From: Dictyostelium discoideum
Taxonomy: Eukaryota
Direction of reading: 5' to 3'
Length of the DNA stretch: 64,000 bases
Assembly: GCA_000004695.1 (NCBI GenBank)
Contig: CM000151.3
Span: 2,336,001-2,400,000, forward strand
Below the pieces are notes generated by a model. The model ran no database searches. It saw only the letters and a program-made list of their open reading frames with translations, and was not told where the DNA came from. A program made the translations under genes and the position numbers. Position 1 is the first letter of the stretch. Every line of letters starts with the position of its first letter. Below, in pieces: positions 3,145 through 9,853 of this stretch.

Positions 3145-5351
<2,207 letters not shown>

Positions 5352-5745
5352 ATTATAAAATTTTATAATTTTTTATTGTTTTTAATTGGTGAAATTATTT
5401 TTTTTAAAAAAAAAGATTTTTTAGATTTTTTATTTTTTAAAAAATATAAATATCTCTAGAAATCTACAAACTGTTGACATAATGAAAAAAAAAAAAAAAA
5501 AAAAATCAAAAAAAATAAAATATTGCGTAATTGATTCTAAAATATCATATTTTACTCTTAAAAATATCCAAATTATTTGAAAAGGTTTTTAGAATTATAA
5601 TTCTTTGCTTTTTTTTATTGGTATGATTAAAAAAAAAAAAAAAAAAAATACAAAAAATGTGAATAATATCATAAAAAATATTATTTTCATATTTTTATTT
5701 TTATTTTTTTAATCATATTTTTTTTATTCATATTTTAATTTTTAT

Positions 5746-5779
<34 letters not shown>

Positions 5780-5940
5780 CAAATCAATAAAAAAATTAAA
5801 ATATGAATAAAAAAAATATGATTAAAAAAAAAAAAAAATAAAACCAAGAAATTCTTTAATATTAAAAAAAAAAATCATTAGTTGTGTTTAACATCACTAA
5901 TGATTATTATTATTTTTTCAATACAAAGGGACAAAAAATT

Positions 5941-6030
5941 CAAACAAGCACCCCAAGTTAAATTAATATGTAAAAAAAAAAAAAAAAAAATCCTCACATA
6001 TTAATTTAACTTGGGGTGCTTGTTTAAATT
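5941..6030. repeat. Perfect 30-bp inverted repeat (hairpin) with an A-rich 26-nt loop, followed by a small second stem-loop (cgtattaaatacg) and a T-run.
   Basis: caaacaagcaccccaagttaaattaatatgt (5941-5971) against acatattaatttaacttggggtgcttgtttaaa (5998-6030). Stems are GC-richer than the surroundings. Confidence 0.7.
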
Positions 6031-6065
6031 TCTTGTGTCGTATTAAATACGAGTGTTTTTTATAG

Positions 6066-6104
<39 letters not shown>

Positions 6105-6203
6105 AATTTTTAGTTTTGGTTACCAAGATTTATTTTAAAATATTGTTTTTATTATTTTTATTTCTATTATTTAAATTTTCATAGTGGACATCAACTTGAG
6201 TAT

Positions 6204-6687
6204 ACTATTCACCTTCTCGTATTGAATTTATATTTCTATAAACTTGGTAAGAGAAAATGATCCCACCATTTTGGACGTGGCGTTGCAAATTATCCAGACC
6301 TTCATTATCCATAAATTGATTCAAAACTTCAAAGACTACAAATACATAACAAATCAATTGTTATTTCTCTAACTTATCTGTCTTTAAATGATTTAAAAAA
6401 TTGCCCTAAAAAGAATTTATAATTGTTTGGTCTTAATAAAAGTTATTAATTTGTAATACATAATTTATTTTTATAATTATTTACTTACAAAACACTTCCT
6501 CTTGCCAAATAATTAAAATTATTGGATCCTCTGTATTGAATAATGGATCTTCATTATTCAATAATGGATCTTCACTTTTAAATGGTTTTTTGTCTTTAAA
6601 AAGTCGAATATATAATTTTAAAAGAATTGAAAATGGTTGTAAAAAAAAAAAGAAAAATACTTTATTTTGTAATAAAAACAAAATTAA

Positions 6688-6690
<3 letters not shown>
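6204..6690 (-). CDS. Possible small two-exon gene (EDP-repeat protein), weakly supported.
   Basis: ORF 6481-6690 (...EDPLLNNEDPLFNTEDPIILIIWQEEVF) ends at a GTAAGT donor at about 6483. An in-frame acceptor (tttgtag) opens a second exon at about 6346-6204 (FFEVLNQFMDNEGLDNLQRHVQNGGIIFSYQVYRNINSIREGE, stop). This second exon is GC-richer than the flanks. No homology recognised. Confidence 0.25.
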
Positions 6691-6724
<34 letters not shown>

Positions 6725-6907: not shown

Positions 6908-8730
6908 TTATAATAATAAAATGATCATAAAGATAAAAGTATTAATGCTTATAAATAAACTTAATTTTGAAGATGATGATGGTTTCTCTGAACTATCACT
7001 ATCGCTATCACTATCACTATCACTATCACTATCACTGTCACTATCACTATCACTATCACTATCACTATCACTATCACTATCACTGGAATCTCTATTCTTA
7101 GAACTATTGCTACTAACATCTGAACTACTATCATTACTAGAAGAGGTAGGTTTTGTTATTGAAATTTCAATTGTATTTGATTGTTGTTCACCAACAGTGA
7201 AATATAATTGATAAATTTTATCACTTACAAGATTTGAATAGACATTGGCAATTGTTGAAGTGATGTAGTTATTTTTATCTTGTTGATTTTCGAAATAAAA
7301 TTTTAATGATTTGTTTGAACTTTCTTTTTCAGTAAAGATTGCAAGATTTACATTATCATAATCAAAATCGGAACCATAGATAATTAATACAGAGTCACCA
7401 TTAATCTCAATAACATCATATGATGTAATTGTTGGTGCATTATAACTATAGGTTATGGTTTCATTAATGTGATTATTTAAAGTTAATTGTTTTTTAATAT
7501 TTTTACCAACACCTTTTGGAATTGTAATTGTGAATTCTTTATTTGGTATTTCCAATGAGTGACTTTCAGAATCTCCAAAACTATACTCCCAACCTAAATT
7601 TGTACCATTAAATTGTAAATTTCCACCAGTTTTTGTTGAAAATGTTGTATTTGATTGAGTGATTTGATTTAAATTATAATCTGAACAATCTCTTGAACTA
7701 AAATAAAAACCATTTGGAAGAATTTTTGAATTGAGTTCAAGATCACATTTGAAACAATTTGGTAAATAGGATAATTCATTATTACTTAATGAAAAATCTT
7801 TTGGAAGTTGACAATATGATTCTGGAATTGATCCATAAATTGAACTATCAGTTATATAGAAACTCTCTAATGTTTTATAATTTGTTGATATATCTTCCAA
7901 CTCTGGTAATCCTTGATAAATTTCATTATTTGTTGATGAAAAACTTAAAACATTTGTAAAATCAATTGAATCAATTTCTAAATTACCATCACTTTCAATT
8001 ATTGAATTAATTGGAAATTTCATACATTTACTACATGTTGAAAATGATGATTCATATCCATTTACAATTCTATATATATATATATATATATATTAAAATT
8101 TTGTTAGTATATATATTTTTAGTTTTTTTTTTTTTTTTTTTAAATTAATTACATGTTAATTACAATTTAAAACCTGATAAATAATTTGAAAAATCATAAC
8201 CATTTGTAAATTTAAAAATTGAATTTGTAAGTGTTAATGATTCAAGTGAATTTGATAAATCATTATCCAATAATAGAAATTCCCAATTAGTCTCTTGTGA
8301 ATATCCATTAATTGTTAAAGTTTTTAAATAATTGAAATAATTTAAAACTGGTGCTACTGGTGATGAAACTGTACCGTTTGTGGTATAGGAAATTTCATAA
8401 TTTTCTAAATTTACCAATATTTTTGAAAAAGTTTCTGAAATCTCTTGAGTGAAACTTTGAGGATTTACACCAATTTTTAAAGTTGTTAAACTAAGATTTG
8501 GAATTGATAATTTTGAAAAACCAAGTGCATTTTCAATTATTAAAGTTTTTAATTTTGATTCAAACATTGATGATGGTACATTAACTGATACTGTACCTAT
8601 AAAAAATTCCTCCAATGTATCTTGAAATGTAATTGCACTATTCATTTCATCAAAATATTTATAAAATCTTTTATTTATAATAAAAAAAAAAAAATAAAAA
8701 TAAAAAAAATAAATATTAGTCCAATTTTTA

Positions 8731-9342: not shown

Positions 9343-9853
9343 TTTTGATTTCTTTTATTTAAAATTCTAAAAATATAAAAAAAAACCGATTTGAAAAATA
9401 TCAAAGAAAATCAACACTAAATTTTTTGCACAAGTCAGTTAAAGAAAAAAAAAAAAAAAAAGTGGGTGATTGAAATATTGATCTGTAATTTTTTTTTTTC
9501 TGTAACTGATCGGTGCAAAAAATGAAAACAAGGTTATTATCTGTAACCCCTACAATATATATATACATATATATAACGCCTTAATTCAATCTGATTATTT
9601 TAAAATAAAAAAAATTTTATTTATTATATAAAAAAAAATACTCTACCTGACTTTTTCTTTTTTTTTTTTTTTTAATATTTTATTATATTTTTTTTATAAA
9701 ATTTCTTATTTTCATTTTATTGTTTTTTTAAAATAGATAAATGAGTAACACAATAAAAAATTTAAATTAAATGGTTTTTTACCTTTTTTATTATTTTTTT
9801 CGATTATCCAAATTTGACATTAAAAAAAACCAATCAAACCATGTGGTGGCCAA

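Follow-up and report, generated by a model that had tools for sequence, protein, structure and literature searches.

The palindrome and its flanks

The window analyzed here, a 64,000-nucleotide stretch of Dictyostelium discoideum AX4 DNA, carries on its minus strand a gene with a signal peptide and a start codon at position 5326; the next solid gene, which encodes a TIG-domain protein, ends at 6908. Since these two positions bound the intergenic DNA, the hairpin described below falls within a 1.58-kb spacer (~87–90% A+T), about 600–700 bp upstream of the start codon of the first gene. The preliminary description of the locus had named this gene Fsl. Its conceptual product gives a weak match to the Fz domain (E = 0.006, below Pfam's cut-off), which is consistent with the name, kept here for convenience, without proving the identity of the gene. 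The window is placed on AX4 chromosome 2 by exact protein matches, among them cAMP-binding protein 1, SURF1 and DDB_G0273037. Each of these proteins has two gene identifiers; we therefore infer that the window lies within the known chromosome-2 duplication of AX4, in which case this strain would carry two copies of the hairpin. A search with an Fsl exon returned no match in the protein collection, which also has no exact record of the 1114-aa open reading frame and none of the ten open reading frame peptides that lie over or beside the hairpin.

The locus was compared with syntenic loci anchored on DDB_G0273037 and its transglutaminase-like neighbour. These came from three assemblies labelled D. 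discoideum (ACTFIT, ACTFIW and ACTFIR), from D. citrinum (two assemblies), D. dimigraforme, D. firmibasis and D. purpureum, and from D. cf. discoideum ACTFIZ.

The palindrome spans 106 bases (coordinates of palindromes, arms, loops and homopolymer runs are given without strand). Its 41-nt arms, 5931–5971 and 5996–6036, are paired at 39 of 41 positions and contain a core in which 5942–5971 is complementary to 5996–6025 at all 30 positions, as found both directly in the sequence and with a repeat finder. The exact 30-bp inverted repeat of the preliminary description is therefore confirmed, with two corrections: the spacer, put there at 26 nt, measures 24 nt (5972–5995), and the c at 5941, included there as the first letter of the pair, is a mismatch and lies outside the perfect stem. 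The two arm mismatches oppose A at 5935 to C at 6032 and C at 5941 to A at 6026; on the minus strand, both turn into G-U wobbles. The loop consists of A19 followed by TCCTC in AX4, of A22 followed by TCCTC in ACTFIW and of A22 followed by TTCTC in ACTFIR. Read on the minus strand, it is GAGGA followed by U19, and pairing of the U-run with GAGGA, by A-U and G-U pairs, can lengthen the stem to ~46–47 bp.

Structure prediction, which had been proposed as a check, gave a very stable fold on both strands. For a 116-nt sequence, the predicted energy is −51.7 kcal/mol on the plus strand (z = −12.9) and −62.3 kcal/mol on the minus strand (z = −15.0), with 39–41 of the 41 pairs formed and all 41 on the minus strand. 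When the 64 kb were folded in sliding segments of 120 nt (mean −12.6 kcal/mol, sd 6.8), the hairpin, at −62.3 kcal/mol, stood about 7 sd off the mean, and the sole other extreme site was 2461–2580 (−64.1 kcal/mol). Likewise, 100 shuffles of the window that preserved its dinucleotides gave an expected count of 0.00 for the 30-mer, which bears out the earlier statement that a perfect palindrome of 30 bp should not occur by chance in 64 kb. The palindrome is real, very strong and beyond chance.

The same cannot be said of the second stem-loop that had been reported 3' of the inverted repeat together with a T-run. This element (cgtat-taa-atacg, 6039–6051, plus strand) has a stem of 5 bp, which is broken in ACTFIW and ACTFIR in the strain alignment. 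It is followed by six T (6056–6061), ATAG and an A-run of 38 nt (6066–6103), itself interrupted by a G in ACTFIW and ACTFIR; on the minus strand, the A-run is a T38 run located 30 nt upstream of the hairpin in that orientation. A scan for terminator-like sites returned none. With a 5-bp stem that is unconserved in the other strains and an arrangement that is not terminator-like, the second stem-loop and its T-run are a chance occurrence and were dropped as a feature.

The hairpin adjoins a segment (6205–6700) that is specific to D. discoideum. Its G+C content (~25%) is coding-like, and it carries an intron-like signal of canonical form (GTAAGT...TAG) as well as a T-run-then-G start motif at ~6688. 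The segment has no in-frame ATG in AX4 (one is present just before the donor site in ACTFIW and ACTFIR) and differs between strains by frame-breaking indels; no homologue was found in the window, the compared loci or the sister species, and no assembly has a gene called there. For these reasons we treated it as non-coding, and a small spliced gene carrying the hairpin in its 3' UTR was rejected on the same grounds. The segment may be a dying or non-coding transcript unit.

These flanks bear on the reading of the hairpin as a 3'-end or termination element for a minus-strand transcript coming from 6205–6700, or else as a plus-strand Pol III-type hairpin RNA ending at the six T. We regard both versions as extremely improbable. 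On the minus strand, the hairpin does lie 169 nt downstream of the last open reading frame stop in the segment, but AATAAA signals are found upstream of the hairpin, and the lack of an in-frame ATG in AX4 and the frame-breaking indels count against the transcript to be terminated. A run of five or six T does occur 3' of the hairpin on the plus strand in all three strains; such runs are, however, ubiquitous at this base composition, the terminator scan was empty, no DUSE lies within 150 nt on the plus strand, and no A/B-box-type element was seen by eye.

Two further observations concern the spacer. In GCA_054883475.1, an automated gene model (L002 3004–9103) fuses the TIG-domain gene with the Fsl gene into one 1307-aa product that spans the spacer, so that the hairpin comes to lie inside an 'intron' of the model. 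As ACTFIW, ACTFIR and the sister species have a separate call for each of the two genes, the fused model is probably an artefact of annotation. This spacer contains, in D. firmibasis and D. dimigraforme, a Cys-rich gene of ~170–179 aa (L003 1976–2490; L008 2013–2552); its two versions are 50% identical, and neither D. discoideum nor D. citrinum shows any trace of it. The possibility that the hairpin region is a pseudogene relic of this 179-aa gene was rejected because of the absence of any trace of it in D. discoideum.

Presence in relatives and evolution of the arms

Identity to AX4 over Fsl exon 1 is 96.5% for ACTFIW and ACTFIR, 90% for D. citrinum, 85% for D. dimigraforme and 83% for D. firmibasis. 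The hairpin is found at the same syntenic site in ACTFIT, where it is identical to that of AX4, and in ACTFIW and ACTFIR. By contrast, it is absent from D. citrinum (both assemblies), D. dimigraforme and D. firmibasis, though both flanking anchors (the Fsl promoter block and the end of the TIG gene) are present in these species. The best minimum free energy over 120 nt lies between −19.5 and −28.4 kcal/mol in the sister-species spacers, compared with −50 to −62 kcal/mol in D. discoideum. Synteny is broken at the locus in D. purpureum and in ACTFIZ, which are therefore uninformative on presence or absence. A check for conservation in D. firmibasis and D. purpureum, as had been suggested, thus yields an absence in the former and no verdict from the latter. 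In ACTFIZ, a PIF/Harbinger-type transposase gene (L007 1734–3964; DDE_Tnp_4, HTH_Tnp_4) is found upstream of its DDB_G0273037 orthologue, in the position that the TIG and Fsl genes occupy in the other genomes.

The hairpin is therefore confined to the D. discoideum lineage. As it is present in AX4, ACTFIW and ACTFIR and absent from the sister species, its origin is placed later than the separation from D. citrinum and earlier than that of these three lineages; several independent losses are the alternative to a single recent origin. None of the outgroup loci contains an arm-like sequence longer than 13 nt, and a single-copy donor arm was not recognised. A stretch of ~1.2 kb here cannot be aligned with D. 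citrinum, and there is no clean empty site.

Presence in some lineages and absence from others is one of several features that recall a mobile element. Two long inverted arms around a short non-coding centre are also the layout of thug-S and other non-autonomous D. discoideum DNA transposons, thug-S elements are known from published work to carry miRNA hairpins in this species and to yield miRNA-like RNAs, and a PIF/Harbinger transposase gene sits in the corresponding neighbourhood of ACTFIZ. The palindrome could accordingly be viewed as a MITE or as fused, thug-S-like transposon ends whose terminal inverted repeats are the arms. The likeness, one of general layout, does not extend to copy number or to insertion marks: each syntenic locus has a single copy, with no other in the window and nine loci of ~22 kb each (~260 kb), and the flanks (...AAAGGG / arm ... 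arm / GTCGTA) contain no direct repeat, hence no target-site duplication. Furthermore, complementarity continues in ACTFIW for four more pairs into the flank, and the difference from D. citrinum is a wholesale one over ~1.2 kb without a clean empty site. The earlier suggestion of a transposon-end remnant is thus unsupported, and we hold it to be highly improbable.

A role as a palindromic cis-regulatory site for Fsl is improbable as well. According to this reading, a transcription factor such as GBF, a G-box/CACCC-type factor with G-rich half-sites, would bind to the two GC-containing cores in their inverted arrangement (GCACCCCAAG / CTTGGGGTGC). The position ~600–700 bp upstream of the Fsl ATG at 5326 would suit such a site, the cores are conspicuous in a spacer of ~87–90% A+T, and another conserved palindromic motif occurs in a neighbouring divergent promoter (~9394–9545). 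However, both ACTFIW (CTTTTGATGC) and ACTFIR (CTTTTGGTGC) have lost the G-rich core in the right arm, and arms of 41 bp far exceed what a factor site needs. Moreover, the promoter block shared with the sister species (5440–5612) excludes the hairpin, which these species lack. The regulatory-site, transposon and terminator readings are accordingly minor ones.

We then turn to how the arms have changed within the lineage. Between AX4 and either ACTFIW or ACTFIR, the arms differ at 7 of 82 positions (8.5%); the divergence is 6.2–9.3% in well-aligned neighbouring spacer and 3.5% in Fsl exon 1. The substitution rate of the arms is that of their flanks, and the arms are thus without detectable constraint. 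Over the three alleles, 34 of the 41 pairs are invariant, five are broken in some lineage, one is a wobble (U-A in two alleles and U-G in the third) and one is compensated. The last, which joins 5954 to 6013, is the sole pair changed on both sides: it is C-G in AX4 and A-T in ACTFIW and ACTFIR (C replaced by A at 5954, G by T at 6013). Pairs that change thus mostly break and seldom compensate. Covariation was not significant, the observed score being reached in 169 of 500 shuffles of these three alleles, and simulations in which 7–9 random substitutions fell on a perfect ancestor gave a probability of 0.08–0.14 for at least one compensated pair by chance. The C-G to A-T change hints weakly at selection or at conversion within the palindrome.

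None of the 41 pairs is mismatched in every allele, in agreement with a perfect ancestor near the split of the lineages. Each lineage has 2–3 mismatches, which is close to the ~3.5 that, by our own arithmetic from the divergence, neutral decay of a perfect palindrome would have produced since that split. The energy of the hairpin is kept at −49 to −62 kcal/mol in all three lineages. The arms are free of indels; the flanks are full of them, in homopolymer runs. The strand that folds better is not the same throughout: it is the minus strand in AX4 and ACTFIW and, marginally, the plus strand in ACTFIR.

Other palindromes in the neighbourhood

The 106-base palindrome is one of several. An AT-only palindrome at 5692–5842, with 52-nt arms matching at 94% and 40 bp of perfect pairing (5704–5743 / 5791–5830), and an 8-bp hairpin at 5875–5903 are both found in AX4 and in neither ACTFIW nor ACTFIR in the three-strain alignment. 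The former marks an independent inverted duplication more recent than the 106-base palindrome, and the latter is likewise a recent inverted duplication beside it. Conversely, ACTFIW alone has a palindrome with 65-bp arms (L001 5871–5937 / 5955–6022; perfect over 42 bp around a 17-nt loop, with −84 kcal/mol per 120 nt), derived from sequence homologous to 6229–6300 (about 6205–6300) and accompanied by a local rearrangement relative to AX4.

The other extreme site of the fold scan is a hairpin in AX4 (2470–2492 / 2559–2581, within 2381–2640; −64 kcal/mol), ~560 bp beyond the 3' end of the Fsl gene. Its counterpart in ACTFIW (L001 2399–2612) consists of a 50-nt unit (TGTTGTATATAAAATATAAAACAATGACACCTCTAACAGAGGAATAACGG) repeated 4.3 times in direct tandem. 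Because the ACTFIW locus is a plain direct array, the AX4 hairpin arose when a unit was inverted. About 90 nt upstream of the AX4 hairpin is a DUSE-like TCCCATAAG, which is conserved in ACTFIW; no Rfam family matches this hairpin, and the miRNA supplements examined do not contain it. The locus at 2470–2581 could represent an ncRNA array, so far uncharacterised, with a DUSE promoter in front of it.

A count of perfect stems of complex sequence, 16 bp or longer, gave two in the 64-kb window, three loci in 24 kb of ACTFIW, and none in ~130 kb from the other species and ACTFIZ. Small as they are, these numbers indicate that the D. discoideum lineage commonly acquires new inverted duplications. With at least four other lineage-specific palindromes within a few kb, this neighbourhood makes palindromes often, which raises the prior that the 106-base palindrome is one more of them.

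A further palindrome, at ~9394–9545 (L001 9331–9444; L005 4895–5087), lies in the divergent promoter that separates the TIG-domain gene from DDB_G0273037. It is made of direct and inverted copies of the motif TTTTTTGCACC[A/G]ATCAGTTAA and is perfect over 30 bp in ACTFIW. The same motif has one or two matches each in D. citrinum and ACTFIZ, as direct copies only. This motif palindrome is a candidate for a shared regulatory element.

Origin of the palindrome and the question of a hairpin RNA

We favour, with middling confidence, the interpretation that the palindrome is a young inverted duplication, made by a mutational process that recurs around it and evolving near-neutrally. The most likely origin would be a fold-back or template-switch replication error in extremely AT-rich intergenic DNA: an inverted duplication of ~41–46 bp around an A-run would have given the palindrome, and substitutions would have accumulated since then at about the neutral rate. 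Indeed, as expected of an inverted duplication of this kind, the palindrome is restricted to one lineage and like events have taken place independently in its neighbourhood. De novo hairpins reportedly arise through template-switch or fold-back replication errors, and young plant MIR genes and hairpin-RNA loci are said to have come from inverted duplications. The palindrome resembles these in that it is near-perfect, confined to one lineage, apparently subject to neutral decay since, and accompanied by several events in a small region; it differs from them in that no donor or target gene homologous to its arms is found in the compared sequence.

Several observations fit a young, near-neutral duplication less well. 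One pair has changed on both sides and is still paired; a strong fold is kept in three lineages, with arms devoid of indels; and both AX4 mismatches are G-U on the minus strand. In addition, the outgroups offer no single-copy donor arm, so that the duplication event is itself deduced and not reconstructed. Both the template-switch origin and the absence of a maintained function are deductions.

Some of these observations would be accounted for if the palindrome were a newborn hairpin-RNA gene, that is, the precursor of a proto-miRNA or of hairpin siRNAs, transcribed by Pol II (most plausibly from the minus strand) and diced by DrnB/RbdB. According to this reading, the main rival and a possible if doubtful one, a nuclear microprocessor would dice the stem of 41–47 bp into one or two phased ~21-nt duplexes, which would be loaded onto Argonaute. 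The preservation of the hairpin in three lineages with one compensated pair, and the tolerance on the minus strand of the AX4 mismatches as G-U, are in keeping with it.

So are geometry and stability. Published D. discoideum miRNA precursors are intergenic, ~105–147 nt long and have energies of −0.53 to −0.69 kcal/mol/nt; the hairpin, at 106 nt and about −0.45 to −0.55 kcal/mol/nt, matches them. The structural criteria applied to miRNAs in this organism are an energy lower than −0.2 kcal/mol/nt and pairing over 60% or more of the duplex, to which are added at least 10 reads per arm, a common 5' end, 2-nt 3' overhangs and dependence on DrnB and RbdB (Liao 2018, PMC6161686). The hairpin is well below the energy threshold, and 39–41 of its 41 pairs form. 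Like ddi-mir-1176, -1177, -1178 to -1186, -7097 and other D. discoideum precursors, it is intergenic, single-copy within the sequence compared and ~106 nt long with a similar energy per nucleotide, and, like mir-1180 and mir-7102, it has a stem long enough for two tandem duplexes. It differs from these precursors in that its AX4 core is perfectly paired over 30 bp, in that it is known from sequence alone and in that it lacks the T-run-then-G start motif in its published form.

Dictyostelid miRNAs are almost all species-specific, as the hairpin is lineage-specific. Closely related species differ by the gain or loss of whole 'miRNA modules', and near-perfect hairpins of unusual length have been read as newly evolved miRNAs (Edelbroek 2024, PMC11014262). 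The rapid turnover and the long newborn hairpins of the known miRNAs therefore fit a proto-miRNA.

Promoter and strand offer weak hints. Published D. discoideum pri-miRNAs start at a G after a T-run, and a T38 run does lie just upstream of the hairpin on the minus strand; the base after it is, however, C where the published motif has G, T-runs abound throughout this genome, and in ACTFIW and ACTFIR T-rich runs are found on both sides of the hairpin. The strand preference is inconsistent as well, ACTFIR folding slightly better on the plus strand. Arms that are no more conserved than their flanks and covariation that is not significant speak against a maintained RNA.

Searches for the hairpin among known RNAs were negative. 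Rfam 15 gave no match at gathering score in the window, and a scan of 5600–6300 by E-value returned only chance-level matches (E > 3), all outside the arms save for an 8-nt overlap with the left edge. No 13-mer from the arms occurs in the Dictyostelium literature searched, and a 22-mer from an arm is absent from the JGI metagenome contigs and IMG/VR. The upstream and promoter motifs of mir-7095 and mir-7104 are absent from the 64-kb window. These two chromosome-2 loci (Table S3), whose coordinates presumably fall inside the duplicated span of AX4, are therefore elsewhere. Words from the arms are likewise absent from the tables and supplements of three studies, all based on deep small-RNA sequencing and together covering part of the published lists (Liao 2018, PMC6161686; Meier 2016, PMC4894637; Edelbroek 2024, PMC11014262), and the hairpin is not among the miRNA sequences and loci given there. 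The base rate is low as well: two extreme hairpins are found in these 64 kb alone, compared with 27 known miRNA loci in total in D. discoideum (Liao 2018, PMC6161686). The earlier proposal of a candidate ncRNA or hairpin RNA thus holds insofar as a stable, non-chance hairpin is present in three lineages, and gains nothing from Rfam, the miRNA lists, substitution rates or covariation.

A more specific conjecture, which we put forward tentatively and consider rather unlikely, is that the hairpin is a small-RNA gene shortly after birth, specific to the D. discoideum clade. It would already be transcribed and diced by DrnB/RbdB into ~21-nt RNAs whose low abundance would have caused them to be missed, or filtered out by stringent criteria.

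A young inverted duplication remains the reading that we prefer, and it leaves the palindrome with a potential of its own. Any transcript running across it, on either strand, would carry a near-perfect hairpin of 41–47 bp, of the size and stability known from miRNA precursors. Taken alone, the palindrome is probably a neutral by-product of mutation in a very AT-rich genome; in terms of its predicted fold, it could be raw material for the birth of a small-RNA gene rather than an established gene. Across three D. discoideum lineages, no fewer than five palindromes that differ in age lie within ~4 kb, and the 106-base palindrome has survived ~8% sequence divergence as a strong hairpin. Since dictyostelid miRNAs turn over very fast and long near-perfect hairpins are taken for their youngest form (Edelbroek 2024, PMC11014262), the locus is a natural place to test replication-born palindromes as a source of miRNAs. 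Should no small RNAs map to it, it would be a useful negative control for hairpin-based ncRNA prediction in the D. discoideum genome; should small RNAs map to it, it would provide a dated miRNA birth outside plants and animals. If the palindrome were indeed a newborn small-RNA gene, its three alleles and the younger palindromes around it would document the stepwise origin of a miRNA from replication errors in an amoebozoan.
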